From the IMG/VR virus record IMGVR_UViG_3300045988_109438: a stretch of 64,000 nucleotides of DNA; one strand, given 5' to 3'. Of the stretch, positions 6,671 through 54,243 are shown piece by piece. The notes under the pieces were generated by a model. The model was not told the origin of the DNA and searched no databases. It saw only the letters and a program-made list of their open reading frames with translations. Position 1 is the stretch's first letter. Each line of letters opens with the position of its first letter. The position numbers were made by a program, and so were the translations under genes. This stretch comes from a virus.

Positions 6671-7357
6671 TTTTTGTATATATATATAGTTTTTTCATAG
6701 TTATAATTTGGGAAGTGAGGCTTGTGAAAGTCTCACTTTTCTCATATATATACGTATATCAATAACATATAAGAAAAGTTAGATTTTCATTGTTTATGGA
6801 TTATTTTTGTTAAGTTTGCGATATTAGTTTCAGGAAGGGATTATGGGAATAAGGAAAAAGTAAGAACCGAACGTAACTAATAACAGTAGGAAATGAGAAT
6901 CAGTACCATCAAACGTAACAACAGCATTCATCTTATGTATAAAAACATTATGAATGATTTAGGTCAATTAAGAACTGTAGTTTCAAAATCCTATATTTAT
7001 AATCTGATACAAAATCAAACCGGATTAAGTATCAGAACTATATCCCATGTCTTGAATCACACAAAAGAACAGGATACAGATTCTTTGTGAAAAGCATACA
7101 TTTTCATACATTTGTGTGTTCTTTAGTTTTTAGATTTAAGTTTTTCATGGTATTAGTTTAGATTAGTGTAGATCAGGGTTCGCAGTGATGCGGGCCCTGG
7201 TTTGATTTAAAAAGTATTAAAATATTTGCTATTTAAGATCCTGTTCCTATCTTTGTTCCAGAAACAATGAACAACGAGATCCCGCCTCTGGTTGTTTGAT
7301 GTTGAAAGATATTTTTGGCTCATTAGGGTTTGTCATAGTGGGATCTGACATTCTCTT

Positions 7358-16913: not shown

Positions 16914-19900
16914 ATGGTATCAACGTGTATTATTAAAAGAGATAATAAAAAGAAAGTTGTTTCTGTCTCTACCAGATCAGGGGACAGGTCTATGTTGTTT
17001 GATAAGATAGCATCTATTCCTCTTATGGAGAACAGGGAACGGGCTACTACTGTTTTTAAAACCGTATTTTCTAATAAGTTCTTAAAGGATTTTGGCGACT
17101 GGAGAAAGAGAGTGCCTATCAACAAACCGGCTTATAATAAGGTTAAATCCAACATTGATCTTATTCCGGAAGCTTATAGAGAAAGGGTACTGGATAAGGC
17201 TTCTAAGATGAGCAACCCTATTCTTGTGTCAAAATCAGATGCACCTTATGGAATCCGAGAATCGGGCTTTGGATTCTACAGCCAAGATCTGGGTGATAAT
17301 ATTATGTTGGTGGATGCTATGGTTCCGTCAAGTATTTCCGTACCGGAAGGACCTGGAATAGACGCCGGGCAGTATTTACAAGATGCTATATCTTCGGACT
17401 TCACTCCCGTATCTATGGTACAGGATAAGGGTGTTAATTATATGGTTATAAAAGACGGTCTTAAGATATTTAGCCCAGAAGAGTTACCACAGACAGATTC
17501 TAATCCTGTGGGTGTAACGTATCATACTGGAGAGCCTCGTTTGTTTTTCATGAACGATCGTAGTCAATTATTTGAAGATTACGGAGAAGCTCTTCGCTCT
17601 GGAGGGAATGATATTAGAATAGGATTCTTATCCGGCACCGTTCAAGAATCTGCCGTGGATGGCGTGGCAGACATTACTTACAAGGCTGGAAAGTATGTTC
17701 TTAATAACCCCAAGTCTTTTATACCGGTCATGACCGCTTCTGCTTCTACTTCTTTATCAACAAAAGGTGGTATAATTAACTACCTTATAAAGAAAGGTCT
17801 TTTGTCCGGATCCAAGATATTCGATCCGGAAACAAGAAGCTATTATATTACAGGAGAAGGACATACAGGACAAATTAGACTTTTCAATTCAGCCTTATCC
17901 TACACTGAGCTCCGTAATCATTTTGGTTCCGATGTTTCCATGAACGACCAGGGTATGATAACCATAAATTCATTGGATAATAGTAAGGTAACTATGAGAC
18001 TCGCCACCGGAGGAACAGAAAGAGTTAGCAAGGAGCAGATAAAGAGCGATCTTAAGTCTGGAAGATACAATGAATTGGATGCTAAATACGATCACTTTGA
18101 TGCGCTTGTAGTTTCATTTATATTAGAAGACAATGATCTTTATGCTGATACTAAAGCTAAGATAGTATCGGATTATAGCCAAGAGGAACGTAATCAACGA
18201 AATTCTATTGTTGAGATACTGAAAACGCTGGGCGTTAGTGTCGTTGGCATGACCGATTATATAGAGAAGTACCAAACTAAATACGGACACGAACCTTCTG
18301 CTAAGGCATTGGCGGATATTGCCAATAACGTAATAGCAGTCGGTGAAGATGCTACTTTGTCTGACTTAGTAGAAGAAACAGCACACTTTCTCGTAGAGGC
18401 GTACAGAGATCAGAATGCTGTTGAATCTGTTTTGCAAGATGTAGAAGGCACTGAAGAATGGAATCAGTATGCAGGTCAGTATTATAATACATACGGTAAG
18501 GTATATGAAGGCTCTGAACTTGATAATGCTGTTAGGAGAGAAATTCTTGGAAAGATCCTCGCCAGGGAGATGCAGACCGGCACAGCACAGGCGCCGGTAG
18601 AGCCCACCTCCTTCCTGGGGCGCGTCCGGCAGCTTTTCTCTGGAATCGTAAGCTGGCTTAAATCAGCTTTATCAACCCAAAGACAAGATTTGAATAACGT
18701 TATTAAAAACATTCGTGATCTTGCCATTACTGACATAGATAAAGGATTTGACACCTCTCTGTTAAAGGATAATGACTTTACATTATACTCCCTTTCTTCT
18801 ATGAACAAGAACAAGTTTCTTGAGTCTAAGATCCTGGCATTAAGGAAAACATTAAGAGACTTACGTCAGATAAGCTCTGATAGGGCTGTAACTACGTCTA
18901 TGGCCCTTGCTCAGCTTAAGACCATAGAAGATAAGATAAATAAGGTAGAGACCGAAATAGACAAGAATGAGATGGCGGCTGCCATGAACAGCATGATCTC
19001 TACAGCCGAAGCTCAGGTCAGATACTTAAGCAATGTGGTGAACACCATCCTTCATGGTGATACCAAAGACGGTAAGCTTCACTTCAATACCAATGATCGA
19101 AAGAACGTAGATATTATCAACAATCAGGTTCTTCCGATCATGAACGATCTTCGAGGATATATCCGTAACAGAAGTACCGAATTTGATGAACGTGAAAAGC
19201 AGGATTATACAAATAGGATCAATACCGTCATTGCCGACATCAATGGTATTCAGTCTGATATTAAATCAGTACAAGACCTTGATGAAAGTACGTTGCTTGA
19301 TAAGTTAATGAACGAACTTCATGTGCCGGCAGATAAGGTAAAGAGAGTAAAAGAATTTTTCGACAAGGTTCAACACGATGTTTCTTGGATAAGTAGGTGG
19401 TTCGGTATATTAGAGCATTCTTCCAGTCCGTTCAATAACGCTCTTGGAGCTATGATTGCCAAAGACAATTACAATGCGATGGTGAATGCCCAGCCCGCCA
19501 TATCCGATTTCCTGGCATATGCGAAAAAGCATGGTTTTAACAAATCTGAATTTGAAAAACTGCTTCAGAAAGTAGACGGCAAAACTTCTAATTACCTTCG
19601 TAGTGCTCTTGATATGGCTAAATACGATCGTAATAAGAAGCTGGCGCAGATGCGAGCGTTTGCGACTGCCATGAACATAGAGATATCAGAAGAAGAAATT
19701 GGTGATGTGGTTGACAATAACCGTAATTACGTATTTAAAAGAGAAGTAGTTGACAAGGATGGAAATACGGTTACTGAAAACGCTAAATTCAAACCATCGT
19801 CTGATAGGGTTAATACCGATATTTTTACCATCGAGCAGGAAAAGATCTATACAGAGCAGATGGAAAAGTGGGATGCTGAAAATTCGGAACTGGAATTTAG

Positions 19901-48489: not shown

Positions 48490-49287
48490 TTAGTTAGATA
48501 CAAATATACAAGTTTTACTAAGATACCCTTCTGTCATCTCTATAAAGTTCACACAATCTAATTTGCTTAACTTGTAAATCAATGCCGGATTGTGTACTAT
48601 GGCTATAATTTGTGTTTGTGGTTTATGGAATGACAATACATTATAAATTTGCATTATGTTGTCAATGTCAAGATTCCTATCTGGCTCATCCATGAGAACC
48701 GTGTATTCAAAACTGCTTTCTGTTAATGTTATGCGGTTTCTTTCATAATACTTCAACAGGTTATCAATTCTTTTAATCCAAAACGCATTTGATTTTTTCT
48801 TGTATTCTACAAGATCTTGTATTGGAAACGTATAATCCTTTTGACCGAACATTAAATTGAAAAGTGATTCCAATGATAACACCACTTTCTCTCCATAAGA
48901 TCTTCGAATATTATTCACATACAAATCTAAGTTGCTGATGTTTTTCAATACGCTATCTCGATTCATCTCCGCCGATGGCAATAAACGGAATACTTTCCCT
49001 GCATAATCGGATGATATGTCAATCCCATCAAGAACCTTGTCATCATCATCAAATATAGGTGGAAAATCCAGCGCCTCAGCCGGCATTTCAGAGCACATGG
49101 ACTTCTCGCATAACGCATACATTGATATGATGTTAAGCAAAGTTGATTTTCCACTACCGTTTTTACCTATAATTACATTCACTCCTGGCTTGAAAATAAA
49201 TTCTTTACCATTTTCAAACGCTTCTATGTCCGAAGCATATTCAAATGGAGTTTTTGTATTGTCTTTTATTTTTACTGATGTTATCAT
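48490..49287 (-). CDS. ABC-type (RecF/SMC-like, AAA_21-type) ATPase
   Basis: Walker A GKNGSGKST, signature-like SYGEKVVLSL, Walker B VLMDEPD, H-loop IVHNP. Confidence 0.65.
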   Translation of the reverse strand: MITSVKIKDNTKTPFEYASDIEAFENGKEFIFKPGVNVIIGKNGSGKSTLLNIISMYALCEKSMCSEMPAEALDFPPIFDDDDKVLDGIDISSDYAGKVFRLLPSAEMNRDSVLKNISNLDLYVNNIRRSYGEKVVLSLESLFNLMFGQKDYTFPIQDLVEYKKKSNAFWIKRIDNLLKYYERNRITLTESSFEYTVLMDEPDRNLDIDNIMQIYNVLSFHKPQTQIIAIVHNPALIYKLSKLDCVNFIEMTEGYLSKTCIFVSN

Positions 49288-49298
49288 TGTAATCCTTT

Positions 49299-50153
49299 TT
49301 AAAAATCAATTACCGCCCGAACCATGTCTCCGATGTGCTTGTTGCCGGTGCCCGTGAGGCCACTGGAGAAGACCACGTACCACGCGACGGCCTGGCTGCT
49401 CTCAGTACTGGACCAATACCACGTCGAGGAGAGGGGAGATGCCGAAACATAAGTGAATGCTTTGTTTAGTTCGTCCATATAATGGGCCATTAAATTTAAT
49501 TGACCAAGAGATGGTATATACTCGCCATCTTCCAGCAGATTTCTCAATTTTGGATTTCTGGTTACAAGGCGTTCCGTATTGCCGCGTCCGTCAATGTCAA
49601 ACAGCGCATCACATTCACGTTCGTAATATGTTCCACTTCCGGATTCTTCACGGCTATCATCGTCAAGCAATTGTATGATATCATGCTCCGTCAGTGAGAT
49701 TGCAAATGACATGTATCTGTGCTTCAACCCAATGTATCGTACACAATCTTTGGAGTTATCGCCGGTAAACGGCTCTGCATGTCCGTCTTTGTAGATTATA
49801 TACAGTCCGTCAGTTGACTCTTTCTTATCCTCTTCGGATGGTACTCTGTTTTCACATGTACATTTCTCACTTTTGGATCTTACGATTATATTCAACTCAT
49901 TTAATACATGATTCCTGATGACGCTCTCGCACGCTTTTCTTACAAAATCATGATCTCTTCGTTTGAGTTCATCATTCACCATGCATCTGATCCAGTTTTC
50001 TATCTGGTTGTCACCTCCATATGTATTAACCATGTACCGTTTTACGTGTTTCTCCAATAACGGCTCTATGTTTTTGATTATATCTTCTTTGGTAAGGTGA
50101 AGTTCATTTAATATACAGTTCCTTACTGCCTTGTATTCTTTACTTGTGCTCAT
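49299..50153 (-). CDS. protein with C-terminal DUF1566 (Lcl-like) domain
   Basis: TWYWSSTESSQAVAWYVVFSSGLTGTGNKHIGDMVRAV matches DUF1566 core (yWSS...aw.v.f..G...nk....vR.V). Confidence 0.45.
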   Translation of the reverse strand: MSTSKEYKAVRNCILNELHLTKEDIIKNIEPLLEKHVKRYMVNTYGGDNQIENWIRCMVNDELKRRDHDFVRKACESVIRNHVLNELNIIVRSKSEKCTCENRVPSEEDKKESTDGLYIIYKDGHAEPFTGDNSKDCVRYIGLKHRYMSFAISLTEHDIIQLLDDDSREESGSGTYYERECDALFDIDGRGNTERLVTRNPKLRNLLEDGEYIPSLGQLNLMAHYMDELNKAFTYVSASPLSSTWYWSSTESSQAVAWYVVFSSGLTGTGNKHIGDMVRAVIDF

Positions 50154-50164
50154 GATATGCCCAT

Positions 50165-50632
50165 TTAATACTGTGAATCATATTTTCTTTCTCTCCCGCT
50201 GTCTTCCCCTATAGGATTATCCCATCCGTATTTTACAGCCGTAGCTTTAAATAGAGGTAGCCCGTAAAATCCATAATCATCCTCATCCCAGTCTTCAAGA
50301 CCTTCTTCCAGGATGTAGTTCCACATCATTACACATTCAAACATTAAACTGGCTGATATTCCTCTCTGATTTAATGCCTTTTCAAAACCGAATCTTACAT
50401 CTTCTTCAAGCTGTTTCAAAACATTCTCCCTGGTAAATTCAACTACAGTACTGTTCCACCTTTCTTCGTTATTGTATTCTTCGTTCGGCTCCATACCGAA
50501 ATCCTTTATCATGTTATATGGGATAAATTTAGCCAGTCTGTTAAAATCTCTACCGTCTAAACATTTTGATTCTAATTCTTTAAGTTGTTCTAATGTTTTC
50601 ATAAGCAATTTTGTTTTATAGGTTAATCCCAT
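50165..50632 (-). CDS. hypothetical acidic protein
   Basis: ORF. Confidence 0.45.
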   Translation of the reverse strand: MGLTYKTKLLMKTLEQLKELESKCLDGRDFNRLAKFIPYNMIKDFGMEPNEEYNNEERWNSTVVEFTRENVLKQLEEDVRFGFEKALNQRGISASLMFECVMMWNYILEEGLEDWDEDDYGFYGLPLFKATAVKYGWDNPIGEDSGRERKYDSQY

Positions 50633-51285
50633 CCTCCAGTAGTGTACAAAGATACATCTTCCTCCTCTACGTTTACACCTTTAATAGCCTGTAGAAGTTT
50701 TTTCTTTGTCTCCCGGCACATATTGTAACCATATCCTTTATACCGATATGAGCGCTCCCATGTACTTACTGGGAAAGGAATATTTTCGTCAATAACCAGC
50801 CTCTTCATATGAAGATGTTCGAAGAATTTCTCATGATAGAGTAGTTTGTACTCGTATGCTACTATACTTGCAGATGAGAATGGAAAATAATCATCTTCCT
50901 TTTCTTCGTATTTAGGCTCCTTATAGTAAGCCATTTTTGCCACAGTAAAGTCAAAGCTCCTAAGAATCTCTTCTGGTTTACCGAACTCTGACTCTATGAA
51001 CTCTACCCATACTTTTTCTCCCTCTTTCTGGAACGCGCATACCTTCTTATTTCTATATTTAAATTTCCATCCTTCTTTCTGATGTTTTTCATCATTGAAC
51101 AAATCAACAGCCTCCTGAAAATCGCTTTCACTTTCAAAGAAAATATCAATGTCTTTTACTCTTTCTCCGGAAAGGATATTTTTAAAACATCCACCAGCTA
51201 TGAATCCTTTGTGGCCTTCCATATACTTGTCAAGCCATCTTATTTGCCAGAAATTATCTGGAGTATCTATTACAAAATTATTCAT
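50623..51285 (-). CDS. nucleotidyltransferase, CCA-adding-enzyme/poly(A)-polymerase head-domain-like (Pol beta superfamily)
   Basis: GFIAGGCFKNILSGERVKDIDIFF (GG...DxD) and LRSFDFTVAKMAY (RDFTxNA-like third carboxylate motif). Confidence 0.6.
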   Translation of the reverse strand: MNNFVIDTPDNFWQIRWLDKYMEGHKGFIAGGCFKNILSGERVKDIDIFFESESDFQEAVDLFNDEKHQKEGWKFKYRNKKVCAFQKEGEKVWVEFIESEFGKPEEILRSFDFTVAKMAYYKEPKYEEKEDDYFPFSSASIVAYEYKLLYHEKFFEHLHMKRLVIDENIPFPVSTWERSYRYKGYGYNMCRETKKKLLQAIKGVNVEEEDVSLYTTGGWD

Positions 51286-51654
51286 ATTGCTTATGTTTTG
51301 CCGTTACCAAGCGAGATAAAAATTCCGCTTCACAATAATACAATGAGTGTAATTACTCAGGTCGATTCCGTTGTCCGTAAATGCATCCAGGACCCGTTTT
51401 TCCACGTATTTGAGTTTTACTGTTATCCCCTTCTTAAACACTTCTATTAACTTCTCATTGCACTCAATAGGCCCAATAAGACAGTATCTATTCGAAGGAC
51501 TGTCTGATATACAATATGTCTGACATCCTAACATGTTGCTTAAAATATCCTCATTCATGTTTTTATGATTTTAATATGATGTTTATAAACGTCGAAACTG
51601 ATAGTGATTACGCCGTATTTACATCGCTGATTTTGCTCCTTGATTTACTTGTTT

Positions 51655-52392
51655 TCATTTTTCTGGATTTTCAGTAGTTCCTAAAAGACATTCATTACCC
51701 TCAAAATGAATACAATAATCCCATAATGTTCCATTGGAACATTCGTACTTATAAGGCAATCCATTATAATCGTCCACAATTTCCCTTGCAAACAAACTGA
51801 TATTCCATTTTTTATTTCCTTCTTTTCTTACCAGCACTTTGTCAAACGGCTTAAAATCATATTTCGGCTCTTCTTTAATCCCGAAGAAGCGTTTCAGATA
51901 TTCTTTTGCTTTAGGATTTTCGCTTTTCTTTAACGCTTTAATCATCTTCTGTTTTTCCGAATCTGTTGCAAGTCTATAACATTCTATGTGGTTTTCGTGT
52001 GCAGCAATATTATCCGATATATTAAGACTTGTTCCCGCTGCAAGACTCGCATACAAAGATGTTAAATATTTCCCATTAGTATTTAAGATAAAAATAAAAT
52101 TTCCTTCTTCGTTGCTTAACACATCTCCATCTTTAAATGTAGTATATTCCGGGACTTCAAGAAGGAGGCGATTTTCGCTGCTAAATGCTTTTCCTGTAGC
52201 AGAAAACCAATCTGCCGATACAGAAATAGAATGAATTACAACCAATAACGGACAAATTGACGAATTGTCTTCATATACTATTTCTGCTCTATTTCGTCCT
52301 TTCTCTGTCACAATCTGACCTACTCTTTCCCCTATGTTTATTTTTTTTGCCGTTTCTAAATCAAACGGGATTGTTACCATTTTATATTCCAT
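51655..52392 (-). CDS. hypothetical protein, tandem paralog 1
   Basis: Shares IPFDLxTAxKI, DFKPFxxVLVR, W...LF.R, YEC, C..EGNE.LLGT with adjacent gene. Confidence 0.5.
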   Translation of the reverse strand: MEYKMVTIPFDLETAKKINIGERVGQIVTEKGRNRAEIVYEDNSSICPLLVVIHSISVSADWFSATGKAFSSENRLLLEVPEYTTFKDGDVLSNEEGNFIFILNTNGKYLTSLYASLAAGTSLNISDNIAAHENHIECYRLATDSEKQKMIKALKKSENPKAKEYLKRFFGIKEEPKYDFKPFDKVLVRKEGNKKWNISLFAREIVDDYNGLPYKYECSNGTLWDYCIHFEGNECLLGTTENPEK

Positions 52393-52396
52393 AATC

Positions 52397-53188
52397 TTAT
52401 TTGTTTTTATTGGTTCCTAAAAGATGTTCGTTCCCTTCGTATGGGATACACTGACTAAATGTTACGCCTCCTAAACATTCATATTTGTCATCTATTTCTG
52501 ATCTTCTGGAGAATAAATGCAATTTCCACCTCTCTTGGTTGGTTCTTCTCACCAACACTCGTTCAAATGGTTTGAAGTCACGTTTCGGCATCTCATCTAA
52601 TAGATACTCATATTCACTTAAATATCGTTTTATTATATCTATTTTTCTACTGTCTTCGACTTTTATAATCTTTTCTGCTAAAAATTTCTTCTCTTCTTCT
52701 ATAGCCTTTCTTACATGCCGTTTTTTATCTTCATCATACACATCAGTCCATAATCCGCTATGATCAAACTTAATATCTCCAGATGTTACCATTCCACATA
52801 TACTTCCCATTACCCCTTTGGTAATAAGTCCATCATATATAAATTGACATCCTTTAGTGCTTGTTAATACATCTCCTTTCTTAAAATACGCTCCAGCCTC
52901 TACCCTCAATTCCAGAGTGGTGCCGCCAATAATACAACCTTCCGTGTTGGCATATATAGCACTTATCCCATATCCATCTTTTTTTACAAAAAGCAAATTA
53001 TAAGGACCTGCACAGTCTTTCGACTCATATACAAATTCTATTTCAATATTATCAATTAATACCGAACCTTCTATTTCTCCGCTTTTAATTTTTCTCGCCG
53101 TATTTAAATCAAACGGAATAATAATTGCATTTTCCATATTTTTCTTGTTTTTAGTTGTTATAAAATAAGATGGGTTACTTACGCCCAT
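52397..53188 (-). CDS. hypothetical protein, tandem paralog 2
   Basis: As above. Confidence 0.5.
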   Translation of the reverse strand: MGVSNPSYFITTKNKKNMENAIIIPFDLNTARKIKSGEIEGSVLIDNIEIEFVYESKDCAGPYNLLFVKKDGYGISAIYANTEGCIIGGTTLELRVEAGAYFKKGDVLTSTKGCQFIYDGLITKGVMGSICGMVTSGDIKFDHSGLWTDVYDEDKKRHVRKAIEEEKKFLAEKIIKVEDSRKIDIIKRYLSEYEYLLDEMPKRDFKPFERVLVRRTNQERWKLHLFSRRSEIDDKYECLGGVTFSQCIPYEGNEHLLGTNKNK

Positions 53189-54243
53189 CCCAGTTGCTTT
53201 GCAATACTTTCCATCTCACTATACGCAATACGATGACATCCGGCTGTCAGTATATCGTTTTCATACCGGTTTATGCTCCACTTATTGCCACCCACGTCCT
53301 CTACCAGGCCATGCCGGAACTGGCCTCCCCGGTGCAACAGTGACACCATCTGCCACATCCTTCTGGCTTCTTCTATCCCGATTTTTATTTGTTTGCTCGT
53401 TTCAATAATTCCCCCTTTTATGCGCATCCAAGCATTTACGTCAGCACAATCAATAAAATAATATGAATGCAAGAAATTAAGTTCTCCCGACTTCCATTTT
53501 TCTAATTTTTCATAAAAATCCTTACGAAATTTGTCTAATTCTTCTTCCCTTGCCCTTCGCTTTTTTTCCTGTTTTGCTTCTATATTTATTCTATATTTTT
53601 CAACTCTTTCCCGATATTTCAACCAAGTTCCTTCACCACAAACTTCATCTACAATCACAATAACGGTTCCAAGGACTTCCAGTGCTTGATGATTCAATAA
53701 TATCTGGAAAACACGTTTCAACTCACGGACATGTTCACGTTTAATCTTATCTGATTTCCATGATAATTCATGGTTAGTTCCAAGCCATTCGTTTGCGCTC
53801 TTTTTAAGAAGACGCCGGGGAGTCCCCATATCGAAGAACTCAATATAATCCATCAGATTTTTAAAATTCCCCCAAACATCCCGATAAGACAATTCGGTTC
53901 TGGCTTTCTTGTATTTTTCAATAGCATCTTTAATACATTCCAACATATTGGTAACAAAGAGCATGTTACCGATACAATATGATATATTACATTCAACATA
54001 GAACACCTTTGAGCCAGTTGGTATTGCTTCACGAACATAATATTGATGCCTGCTTGTAGTAAAAGAATAGTATGTATCATTAATCAAATACGCCTTTTCT
54101 CCACGCTTGTTTCGCACGATTCTTCCGACCTCAAAATGTCTTCCATAGGAGTAAATACTTTCACCTTCAAAATAGAAATTACTACCATTTGCAGATTCTT
54201 GCTTTTCGTTTGCCCACAAGTGAGCGACCATTGAATTGTTCAT
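53179..54243 (-). CDS. hypothetical protein (354 aa)
   Basis: ORF. Confidence 0.5.
   Translation of the reverse strand: MNNSMVAHLWANEKQESANGSNFYFEGESIYSYGRHFEVGRIVRNKRGEKAYLINDTYYSFTTSRHQYYVREAIPTGSKVFYVECNISYCIGNMLFVTNMLECIKDAIEKYKKARTELSYRDVWGNFKNLMDYIEFFDMGTPRRLLKKSANEWLGTNHELSWKSDKIKREHVRELKRVFQILLNHQALEVLGTVIVIVDEVCGEGTWLKYRERVEKYRINIEAKQEKKRRAREEELDKFRKDFYEKLEKWKSGELNFLHSYYFIDCADVNAWMRIKGGIIETSKQIKIGIEEARRMWQMVSLLHRGGQFRHGLVEDVGGNKWSINRYENDILTAGCHRIAYSEMESIAKQLGWA

Follow-up and report, generated by a model that had tools for sequence, protein, structure and literature searches.

A standalone nucleotidyltransferase with a minimal CCA/PAP-like core beside a hypervariable paralog island in a relative of the gut phage crAssE-Sib

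Gene content of the locus

The human gut is rich in Epsilon crAss-like phages, whose early genes are for the most part unexplained. The window analysed here, i.e., the whole 64,000-nt stretch of viral DNA, shares about 93% identity with the gut phage crAssE-Sib, a member of this group. The locus of interest contains the following genes and features:

50165..50632, minus strand: 155-aa ORF (phrog_5706), the start of which overlaps the nucleotidyltransferase stop by 10 nt; an optional neighbour
50623..51285, minus strand: nucleotidyltransferase (NT220), 220 aa, standalone, with a minimal class II (CCA/PAP)-like catalytic core
51304..51558, minus strand: 84-aa Cys-rich ORF, directly upstream of the nucleotidyltransferase, between it and the paralogs
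51559..51654, minus strand: intergenic stretch of 96 nt, the site of extra variable genes in relatives
51655..52392, minus strand: paralog A, 245 aa
52397..53137, minus strand: paralog B, 246 aa if started at M18, or 263 aa as the longest ORF, which reaches 53188
53179..54243, minus strand: 354-aa protein (phrog_7247), bounding the hypervariable island on its upstream side

The ORFs of 220, 245, 263 (longest form) and 354 aa that were named in the original prediction are all present on the minus strand. The 84-aa ORF separating the nucleotidyltransferase from the paralogs was not mentioned there.

Conservation of the locus was followed through 80 close loci, every one of which contains the nucleotidyltransferase (80/80). 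The 84-aa ORF is full-length in 75 of the 80, with a median identity of 96.4%, and was not found beside divergent homologues of NT220; it is co-inherited with the nucleotidyltransferase within its own phage lineage only. The 155-aa ORF is intact in only 42 of the 80 close loci and is absent beside the divergent homologues. Database homologues of 311 aa were considered as fusions of the 84-aa ORF with the nucleotidyltransferase, or as products of stop-codon recoding, and were rejected as gene-calling artefacts, since the 84-aa ORF stops with TAA, which the gene callers read as Gln, in all 59 of the close loci with a locatable junction. No recoding signal is shown by the window.

Sequence motifs and putative catalytic residues of NT220

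The GG-x12-DIDI and RSFDFT motifs, on which the original prediction was built, were both located in the translation of NT220. The conserved segments are as follows:

51145..51195, minus strand: motif A, G31-G32-x12-D45-x-D47, translating to GGCFKNILSGERVKDID, with both Asp residues putatively metal-binding
50944..51003, minus strand: candidate third carboxylate E95, followed by FG.PEEIL..FDFT (the motif B equivalent), translating to EFIESEFGKPEEILRSFDFT
50740..50772, minus strand: helix of the motif D region, P172-x-[SN]-T-[FW]-x-R178-x-x-[RK]181-Y182, translating to PVSTWERSYRY

Residue conservation was counted over 66 diverse family members. G31, G32, D45 and D47 of motif A are invariant (66/66), and this segment aligns with the GGAVRD...DxD segment of TRNT1, Cca and PcnB. 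Position 95 is acidic in all 66 sequences (E in 52, D in 14), and the predicted model of NT220 has a strand at residues 93–98 that carries E95. Further along, F111 is kept in 65 of the 66 members and D112 and F113 in every one, the preceding residue being variable; the whole 50944..51003 segment aligns with FGsiEEDaqRRDFTIN of PcnB. Because its catalytic carboxylates are invariant, NT220 is probably catalytically competent.

In the motif D region, R178, [RK]181 and Y182 are kept in 66/66, T/S175 in 64/66 and P172 in 62/66. The predicted model shows a helix at residues 175–184, but with a pLDDT below 50, as for residues 160–220 in general, i.e., the C-terminal third, which contains the most conserved block of the protein. 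The C-terminal tail has a conserved Y...G-x-D pattern. This helix can be aligned to the motif D pattern EDxxRxxRxxRF in two registers, in which the Asp position corresponds to either T175 (HMMER) or F171 (hhalign); it is never acidic.

Relationship to class II CCA-adding enzymes and poly(A) polymerases

NT220 has the attributes of a class II head, i.e., the Pol-beta head fold, motif A in the form GG-x9-13-DxD and the third carboxylate. A fold search returned tRNA CCA-adding and A-adding enzymes as the nearest structures, and class II RNA-end enzymes stand clearly above every other Pol-beta clade in both the fold and the profile searches. The original prediction had named the MNT/KNTase clade as the assignment that would overturn it; the fold search gave no nearer match to that clade, with CCA/A-adding enzymes coming first, and the HEPN or resistance context of MNT/KNTase-type proteins (HEPN–MNT antitoxins and aminoglycoside/lincosamide nucleotidyltransferases) was not found for NT220.

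The HMMER comparison with Pfam PolyA_pol (PF01743), which the original prediction proposed as a check, gave a match that covers the head only and, at 14.9 bits (E = 0.034), lies below the gathering cutoff of 23. Sub-threshold PolyA_pol matches occur in 25 of the 66 family members, the best at 1.8e-5. Searched against the PDB, the family profile ranks human TRNT1 first (E = 0.039), and 8 of the 10 matches are CCA/PAP enzymes; such weak matches came only from the diverse alignment, PDB searches with the single sequence and with the close-family profile having returned nothing. An hhalign comparison of the NT220 family with a class II reference set of six sequences (four phage tRNA nucleotidyltransferases, E. 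coli Cca and PcnB) gave a probability of 84% (E = 7e-6) over 151 columns, and comparisons with single Cca or PcnB sequences were weak, the PcnB alignment spanning motif A to motif B.

Motif B is an invariant RRD (R90-R91-D92) in the six reference sequences, whereas it is x-F-D throughout the NT220 family. Similarly, D131 and R134 of motif D are invariant in the reference set, whereas the Asp position is non-acidic across the NT220 family. Motif B follows the third carboxylate at a distance of 17 residues in NT220 vs. 35 in E. coli Cca, i.e., about 18 residues closer. The hhalign match reaches only residue 162 of the 412 residues of Cca, and body, tail and HD domains are all missing from NT220, which stops at residue 220. 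The protein was thus rightly described as lacking HD and body domains, Pfam showing only the sub-threshold PolyA_pol head, and it is truly a minimal nucleotidyltransferase. The nearest known systems are class II CCA-adding and A-adding enzymes and bacterial poly(A) polymerase I, with structures such as 3h37 (T. maritima), 3aql (E. coli PAP), 4wby (A. aeolicus) and 1ou5/4x4w (human TRNT1); in contrast to NT220, the top-ranked solved class II chains are 344–517 aa long. Judged by the missing body and tail, the replacement of RRD by x-F-D, the loss of the motif D Asp and the sub-threshold PolyA_pol match, NT220 is not a canonical CCA-adding enzyme.

Comparison with other small or phage nucleotidyltransferases

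Phage-borne, class II-type enzymes without an HD domain are also found among T4-like and jumbo phages, where tRNA nucleotidyltransferases are encoded by, e.g., Aeromonas phage 65 (ST65p392), Cronobacter phage S13 (gp235), Erwinia phage pEa_SNUABM_50 and Vibrio phage PC-Liy1. However, these four enzymes are 346–370 aa long, so that NT220 is about 130 residues shorter; they share 44–56% identity with the N-terminal half of E. coli Cca and keep RRD and DPxR, whereas their similarity to NT220 is at the profile level only. Half-length tblastn matches to E. coli Cca had raised the candidate of CCA enzymes of about 200 aa in these phages, which was rejected when the four checked were found to be ORFs of 346–370 aa.

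A 191-aa standalone protein of S. pneumoniae (NP_344798.1; 2la3), described as a 'CCA-adding enzyme head domain' protein, shares 12% identity with NT220 and is not retrieved by the NT220 family profile, and therefore the two probably represent separate families. The proteins of phiNV3, LIMEzero, PP2 and PS3 (181–201 aa) are compact phage nucleotidyltransferases with the same head fold as NT220, to which they are matched by Foldseek against BFVD with E values of 3e-4 to 2e-3. However, their identity to NT220 is 12–15%, with query-normalised TM-scores of 0.33–0.40, and they were not retrieved by the NT220 sequence searches. Their database labels read 'Poly A polymerase head domain-containing' or 'nucleotidyltransferase'.

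RlaP (PF10127) is a small Pol-beta nucleotidyltransferase that adds one or two NMPs onto damaged RNA 3′ ends (PMC12776372; PMC7824862). It occurs in bacteria and jumbo phages in association with RNA ligases, whereas the structural neighbours of NT220 are different; PF10127 does not match NT220 at E ≤ 1, and no RNA ligase gene adjoins any homologue examined. By analogy, RlaP is a plausible functional counterpart of NT220.

Family distribution and genomic contexts

NT220 matches phrog_4400 over residues 1–218 (E = 8.9e-66), and the precomputed domain PF26128 is assigned to 118 of the 120 homologues listed, down to 56% identity. The family comprises 1,057 clusters at 50% identity and occurs in 131 cultured phage records, with hosts including Streptococcus, Bacillus, Listeria, Bacteroides, Maribacter, Aeromonas and Vibrio. 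Only 21 loci were found among about 185,000 bacterial species genomes, and the two Streptococcus bacterial loci whose neighbours were read have a prophage-like gene order; the family is almost exclusively one of phages and prophages. It is kept from Bacteroides phages to those of Streptococcus, Bacillus and Listeria and to marine phages, and is therefore probably of general use during infection. A literature search found no characterised minimal CCA-like enzyme of a phage and no assayed member of phrog_4400/PF26128, and the paper describing crAssE-Sib is silent on its orthologue.

The homologues lie in early, replication, recombination or nucleotide-metabolism regions. For example, Streptococcus phages and prophages have the order Erf – nucleotidyltransferase – SSB – RusA, in Bacteroides phage BF486P3 the gene is flanked by dUTPase and dCMP-hydroxymethylase-like genes, and elsewhere it is near ThyX and RNR genes. 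No conserved partner gene was found across the divergent loci or nine annotated phage contexts, and in these nine contexts the nucleotidyltransferase is near no tRNA, RNA ligase or Pnkp gene. Homologues are common in phages of 31–53 kb without detected tRNA genes. PADLOC defence and anti-defence models match neither the nucleotidyltransferase nor the paralogs nor the 354-, 84- and 155-aa proteins.

The presence of tRNA-like elements in the window, as had been claimed, was not borne out: ARAGORN predicted 0 tRNAs, and Rfam gave nothing at gathering thresholds and no tRNA-like match even at E ≤ 1. The related phage crAssE-Sib has six tRNAs with no encoded CCA, all of them outside the region that matches the window, and it also encodes a polynucleotide kinase/3′-phosphatase, an NrnA-like phosphodiesterase and a Ro60-related protein; the gene content of this lineage is compatible with RNA-end chemistry.

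Paralogs and the hypervariable island

Paralogs A and B share 32% identity over 250 residues by BLASTP (E = 3e-30), far beyond chance, and the IPFDL..TA.KI, DFKPF[DE].VLVR, YEC and EGNE.LLGT blocks appear in the alignment, so that their proposed paralogy is real. Of the sizes given for them, 245 aa stands for paralog A, whereas 263 aa is the longest ORF of paralog B only. Since the crAssE-Sib orthologue of B (246 aa, 87% identical) starts at the equivalent of M18, and the members listed in its public cluster most often have 246 aa, the start of paralog B is most likely M18 (53137), for a length of 246 aa. In that cluster, the sequence with the widest occurrence is on 90 contigs. The M18 start abolishes the 10-nt overlap with the 354-aa gene.

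The paralogs are full-length in 46–48 of the 80 close loci (B in 46, with a median identity of 68.9%), and the 354-aa protein, which is 73% identical to its crAssE-Sib orthologue, is full-length in 59 with a median identity of 68.7%; the latter has no Pfam, PADLOC or NCBIfam assignment. Within the lineage, the median identity is 69–82% for the paralogs vs. 97% for the nucleotidyltransferase, i.e., the paralogs diverge several times faster across the 80 loci. The crAssE-Sib orthologue of paralog A is 393 aa long and is followed by genes of 74 and 158 aa, both of which are missing from the window. At the 51559..51654 site, relatives carry a Zn-ribbon extension of paralog A and the 74-aa and 158-aa ORFs, and these pieces combine in many ways across the 80 loci. 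Together, the paralogs and the 354-aa gene make up a mosaic accessory island, hypervariable and subject to presence/absence variation, within a backbone that is otherwise 95–98% conserved. The diversification of the paralogs suggested by the original prediction receives indirect support from these identities and the presence/absence variation. Similarly placed genes of about 250 and 223 aa in other phages were considered as relatives of the paralogs and found to be unrelated.

That the paralogs might be a common pair of structural genes can be set aside, as they are located on the minus-strand early/replication arm, are full-length in little more than half of the close loci and are absent from other phages that carry the nucleotidyltransferase. 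An island of this kind, among early-region genes, is expected for host-interaction or counter-defence functions, and in Epsilon crAss-like phages it could serve as a hotspot of counter-defence. The predicted structure of paralog A (model pLDDT 57) has a beta-rich N-terminal region, a helical linker and a small C-terminal beta-barrel, for which Tudor, PWWP and chromo-like five-stranded barrels of the SH3 type are the candidate classes. The C-terminal module may be a Tudor/SH3-like barrel, in a model that is poor because the alignment is shallow, the best 120 matches of both homology searches being 72–98% identical.

Proposed function and alternative readings

We favour, with moderate confidence, the reading that NT220 is an active standalone 3′-end nucleotidyltransferase of class II descent that most likely acts on RNA, and that the paralog island is a separate matter. 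The protein would have originated in the class II lineage of the Pol-beta superfamily by reduction to the catalytic head and a short helical segment, and motif A, the third carboxylate, the motif B-like FDFT and an Arg-rich helix are collinear in it. Two metal ions would be held by D45, D47 and E95, and the enzyme would transfer a nucleotide from a (d)NTP, independently of any template, onto a nucleic-acid 3′-OH, most likely at an RNA 3′ end. The outcome might be the tailing or repair of a tRNA or another small RNA, or possibly the addition of poly(A)-like tails by which host RNA is flagged for decay.

In class II enzymes, the first two residues of motif B are linked to ribose discrimination, and the region between the third carboxylate and motif B contains a loop needed for A-addition. 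Because NT220 has no body or tail, carries x-F-D, has lost the motif D Asp and is about 18 residues shorter in this region, it is unlikely to build a complete CCA as canonical enzymes do, and its nucleotide specificity probably differs from theirs. The change from RR to x-F in motif B could reflect the use of dNTPs or an acceptor other than a nucleic acid. A bolder and more tentative proposal is that phrog_4400/PF26128 is a phage-specific class II offshoot with no tRNA ruler and a re-engineered pocket, in which x-F-D would replace RRD and a Thr/Arg helix would replace EDxxR, catalysing a reaction so far undescribed for the superfamily. Such an enzyme might add, for example, a nucleotide other than C or A, or a deoxynucleotide, onto a specific RNA or DNA 3′ end, with the effect of bringing the RNA metabolism of the host under phage control or of neutralising the substrate or signal of an immune nuclease.

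The original prediction envisaged the repair or completion of tRNA 3′ ends, and jumbo phages do carry CCA-adding enzymes within their RNA-repair toolkits (PMC7824862), a precedent for NT220 being a genuine minimal CCA-adding or repair enzyme for phage tRNAs or for host tRNAs damaged by defence nucleases. The nearest structures and the GenBank labels of two homologues point the same way, as do the six tRNAs of crAssE-Sib and its Pnkp and Ro60-like genes. However, the four authentic phage enzymes are full-sized, whereas NT220 has neither body nor tail; the family-wide replacements (x-F-D for RRD, T/F at D131/R134) and the halved spacing before motif B make canonical repair doubtful, which is further weakened by the occurrence of homologues in phages without tRNA genes. 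Moreover, the gene never adjoins tRNA or RNA-repair genes in the contexts examined, the window has no tRNA, and the host possesses a CCA-adding enzyme of its own. We therefore regard this explanation as quite improbable.

The recurrent placement of the gene in replication, recombination and nucleotide-metabolism modules would fit a DNA-end or nucleotide substrate equally well, and it raises the possibility that NT220 does not act on RNA at all. One candidate role is the tailing or blocking of DNA 3′ ends in the course of replication or recombination; another is takeover or counter-defence through nucleotidylation of a protein or small molecule of the host; a third is the synthesis or modification of a nucleotide-derived molecule. 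The non-basic residue and Phe at the motif B positions associated with ribose discrimination, together with the missing tRNA-binding domain, would suit such a role. However, class II RNA-end enzymes top the fold and profile searches, no defence or anti-defence model matches, and the neighbourhood evidence is weak because genes of many unrelated functions are intermingled in the early and middle regions of phages, all of which leaves a non-RNA substrate rather unlikely. A module in which the enzyme works together with the paralogs as diversified decoys, inhibitors or specificity subunits would account for the adjacency and common orientation of these genes, an arrangement that recurs in crAssE-Sib. 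However, several of the 80 relatives have neither paralog (e.g., L007, L033, L058 and L062) and others have one, whereas the nucleotidyltransferase is retained regardless; the paralogs also diverge much faster, and an iterative search found no relatives of them beside divergent nucleotidyltransferase homologues. The module is thus largely refuted by the comparative data and appears highly improbable: the adjacency is not functional, and the paralogs are not linked to the enzyme outside the lineage of the window.

Significance

NT220 keeps the catalytic machinery of a CCA enzyme but has dropped the tRNA-binding domains and the residues that choose between C and A. It thus offers a small system in which to examine how template-independent polymerases encode their specificity, and is a candidate for a small enzyme that labels RNA or DNA 3′ ends. 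Family members of 200–220 aa call for caution in annotation, as names like 'polyA polymerase' or 'CCA tRNA nucleotidyltransferase' exceed the evidence. For the Epsilon crAss-like phages themselves, the hypervariable paralog island is a place to seek host-interaction or anti-defence genes.

Gene order and source of the region

The NT220 interval, named for its 220-aa nucleotidyltransferase (NTase), is part of the window's minus-strand arm; along the window, the GC-skew sign flips near 24 kb, coinciding with a switch in gene orientation.

ORF calls around NT220, in transcription order
53179-54243, minus strand, 354-aa ORF, first
52397-53188 (longest ORF), minus strand, paralog B, second
51655-52392, minus strand, paralog A, third
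51304-51558, minus strand, 84-aa ORF, fourth, just before NT220
50623-51285, minus strand, NT220, 220 aa, fifth
50165-50632, minus strand, 155-aa ORF, with a 10-nt overlap with the NT220 stop

At 93% identity, the region matches crAssE-Sib (GenBank OR575929, where the name is entered as 'csAssE-Sib'), an Epsilon crAss-like human-gut phage whose 151-kb genome has 196 ORFs together with six tRNAs (Babkin et al. 2024, PMC11054128). The crAssE-Sib orthologue of NT220 is 96.8% identical and bears the GenBank label 'polyA polymerase; CCA-adding enzyme'; it is not discussed in the main text of the crAssE-Sib paper (PMC11054128). In a close-relative set of 80 loci, whose NTases are 95–100% identical, the 84-aa ORF precedes the NTase in 75 loci, and the 155-aa ORF is intact in 42.

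A standalone ABC/SMC-type ATPase of 265 aa, encoded two genes downstream of the NTase (48490-49287, minus strand), resembles ATPase components of defence systems (mad3, 2.6e-17; AriA, 1e-12; also PtuA, GajA and LmuB). It is full-length in 72 of the 80 close relatives, has no evident nuclease partner, and might serve the phage as an exclusion or decoy ATPase. The 284-aa protein at 49299-50153 (minus strand), annotated as DUF3988 in crAssE-Sib, weakly matches the Lcl C-terminal domain (E = 2.4e-4) and also phrog_4245, with identities of 73 to 99% among close relatives. On the plus-strand arm, a ribosomal S15 leader match in Rfam (18074-18188, plus strand) spans the full model length at a sub-threshold 31.2 bits (gathering score 39.5, E = 0.0025). 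A palindromic hairpin at 6727-6787 has weak miRNA-precursor-like Rfam matches on both strands (E 0.13–0.2) and probably represents an inverted repeat, such as a terminator-like one.

Paralogs and the variable island

The ORFs, motifs and paralogy described in the original prediction are confirmed, with a full-length identity of 32% between paralogs A and B (E = 3e-30). The start of paralog B is most likely M18, giving 246 aa, since the crAssE-Sib orthologue starts there and the cluster members listed are most often 246 aa long. Iterative searches found only two copies in the window and no paralog relatives near divergent NTase homologues. Databases contain over 6,800 relatives of the paralogs, with no Pfam or PHROG assignment, and the top matches are all 72–98% identical variants from the same heavily sampled phage lineage.

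The island, which runs from the 354-aa gene to the 84-aa ORF, has a mosaic make-up within this lineage: a locus may have two paralogs, a single one or neither, paralog A occurs with or without a Cys-rich Zn-ribbon extension (393–402 aa forms), and extra genes of 74 and 158 aa are present or absent by locus. Across the 80 close relatives, paralog A has a median identity to the window of 81.5%, paralog B of 68.9% and the 354-aa protein of 68.7%; the corresponding values are 96.8% for the NTase and 95–98% for most flanking genes. The paralogs are clearly not the structural gene pair that had been considered as an alternative, and on the sequence evidence they are functionally uncoupled from the NTase. 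In crAssE-Sib (stretch L001, 10651-11832), as in many relatives, paralog A has a Cys-rich, Zn-ribbon-like C-terminal module, which in other relatives forms separate small ORFs; where relatives carry it, the window has a mere 96-nt spacer (51559-51654).

Many near-identical public 'homologues' of the NTase (P0001, P0005 and others) are 311 aa long. These were rejected as true fusions of the 84-aa ORF and the NTase; they are artefacts of callers reading the TAA of the 84-aa ORF as Gln. This stop is kept in all 59 close loci with a locatable junction, and no stop-codon recoding signal was found in the window.

Assignment of NT220 to class II

Both motifs quoted for NT220 (GG-x12-DIDI and RSFDFTV) are present in the translated window. 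The Pfam model PolyA_pol scores 14.9 bits, below its cutoff of 23, and neither NCBIfam nor a single-sequence search of the PDB gave a match. NT220 is a member of phrog_4400 (E = 8.9e-66) with 874 close database relatives, and precomputed PF26128 assignments were present on 118 of the 120 listed; the family comprises 1,057 clusters at 50% identity, mainly standalone proteins of 190–230 aa. For profile work, a family alignment of 66 diverse sequences was used. Against the PDB, its top match was human TRNT1 (E = 0.039), with CCA-adding enzymes and poly(A) polymerases making up 8 of the 10 matches, and weak PolyA_pol matches occurred in 25 of the 66 members (best 1.8e-5). Profile–profile comparison with a class II reference set (n = 6: E. 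coli Cca, PcnB and four phage tRNA nucleotidyltransferases) gave a probability of 84% (E = 7e-6) over 151 columns. In the profile searches, the best match is class II, not an MNT/KNTase-type enzyme, and the original prediction was right about both the clade and the 'minimal' label. Catalogues already include the family, and members occasionally bear a homology-based annotation; public names are 'hypothetical protein' or a generic 'nucleotidyltransferase', and no characterised member was found.

Putative active site and missing class II features

Residues G31, G32, D45 and D47 of NT220 are invariant among the 66 members, as are D112, F113, R178, Y182 and G186, and position 95, in predicted strand 93–98, is always acidic. 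Such conservation across the 66 members is consistent with a functional two-metal active site and suggests that the enzyme is probably active. The extreme C-terminus (residues 214–220; 50623-50643, minus strand), Y214...G218-x-D220 followed by the stop, is also conserved across the diverse family (Y214 in 65/66, D220 in 58/66). Model confidence is low at this tail, which might fold back towards the active site.

NT220 lacks three features that define class II, i.e., the body/tail, an intact motif B and an intact motif D. In class II enzymes, the body and tail measure the tRNA, RRD in motif B detects the 2'-OH of the ribose, the Asp and Arg of EDxxR act as the template for CTP and ATP, and switching to A-addition requires a flexible loop located between motifs A and B. 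The hhalign match of the NT220 family stops at residue 162 of the 412 of Cca, and authentic phage tRNA nucleotidyltransferases are 346–370 aa long (four checked). Whereas RRD is invariant in the reference set, the NT220 family has a variable residue, Phe (F111, in 65 of 66 members) and Asp. D131 and R134 of motif D, likewise invariant in the reference set, are altered: HMMER aligns them to T175/R178, and hhalign to F171/S174, with R137/R140 at R178/R181. The motif D Asp is conserved in neither of these two alternative registers, which fall in a stretch where the model is of low confidence. The third carboxylate lies 17 residues from motif B, in contrast to 35 in E. coli Cca. Given the class II roles of these features, ordered CCA synthesis on tRNA by NT220 is unlikely, and its nucleotide specificity is probably different.

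Context of the family in phages and bacteria

The family occurs in 131 cultured-phage records. In Streptococcus prophages and Streptococcus thermophilus phage L5A1, the NTase has the Erf-type recombinase region on one side and SSB/RusA on the other; it is flanked by dUTPase and dCMP-hydroxymethylase-like genes in Bacteroides phage BF486P3, is close to ThyX and RNR genes in Thomasclavelia phage TR-TP1 and Lactococcus phage PMBT69, and sits amid small unknown early genes in Listeria P35, Bacillus Basilisk and Maribacter phages. Divergent loci outside the lineage share no conserved neighbour of the NTase. Distant homologues in Aeromonas and Vibrio phages have C-terminal extensions (347 and 472 aa). 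In bacteria, the family is nearly absent, with 21 loci in about 185,000 species, mostly Streptococcus; neighbouring genes were read for two Streptococcus loci, and both show a prophage-like gene order.

The L5A1 homologue (L165 20001-20618; NC_070687.1 31467-32084) is a continuous 191-codon match, of which the record annotates just a 108-aa CDS (gp34), the C-terminal part; this RefSeq entry apparently either misplaces the gene start or contains a disrupted gene. The Robertmurraya siralis homologue (NZ_SWLZ01000004.1; L190 4989-5638), split into 74-aa and 109-aa ORFs, is an apparent pseudogene, and the N-termini of the ORFs after it look DNA methyltransferase-like by eye.

RNA ends as the likely acceptor

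The original prediction held that NT220 could repair or complete tRNA 3' ends and that tRNA-like elements in the window lack an encoded CCA. The window has neither tRNAs nor tRNA-like elements: ARAGORN and Rfam at gathering thresholds each found none, and Rfam gave no tRNA-like match at E ≤ 1. The six tRNAs of crAssE-Sib (Cys, Arg, Gln, Met, Tyr, Lys) all lack an encoded CCA, and this phage also encodes a polynucleotide kinase/3'-phosphatase, an NrnA-like phosphodiesterase and a Ro60-related protein; the tRNAs and RNA-handling genes are all outside the region matching the window. Because of these CCA-less tRNAs and RNA-handling genes, an RNA-end function is plausible in the crAssE-Sib lineage. 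This RNA-handling toolkit is located at L161 2615-4409 and L162 22756-24725 of OR575929, where the kinase/phosphatase adjoins the phosphodiesterase and the Ro60-related gene is immediately downstream of tRNA-Tyr and tRNA-Lys.

The tRNA argument from crAssE-Sib cannot explain the family, which is no less common in the three tRNA-less phages examined (L5A1, P35 and BF486P3): ARAGORN found no tRNAs in the 62–76% of each genome scanned, their records apparently listing protein-coding genes only. No tRNA, RNA ligase or Pnkp genes were seen in the cultured-phage NTase contexts examined. With the body/tail absent, motifs B and D altered and the family present in tRNA-less phages, the CCA-repair mechanism is unsupported. 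On the best-supported reading, NT220 would be an active, standalone enzyme of the class II lineage that transfers nucleotides to 3' ends without a template; its specificity determinants are altered, and its acceptor would most likely be RNA ends.
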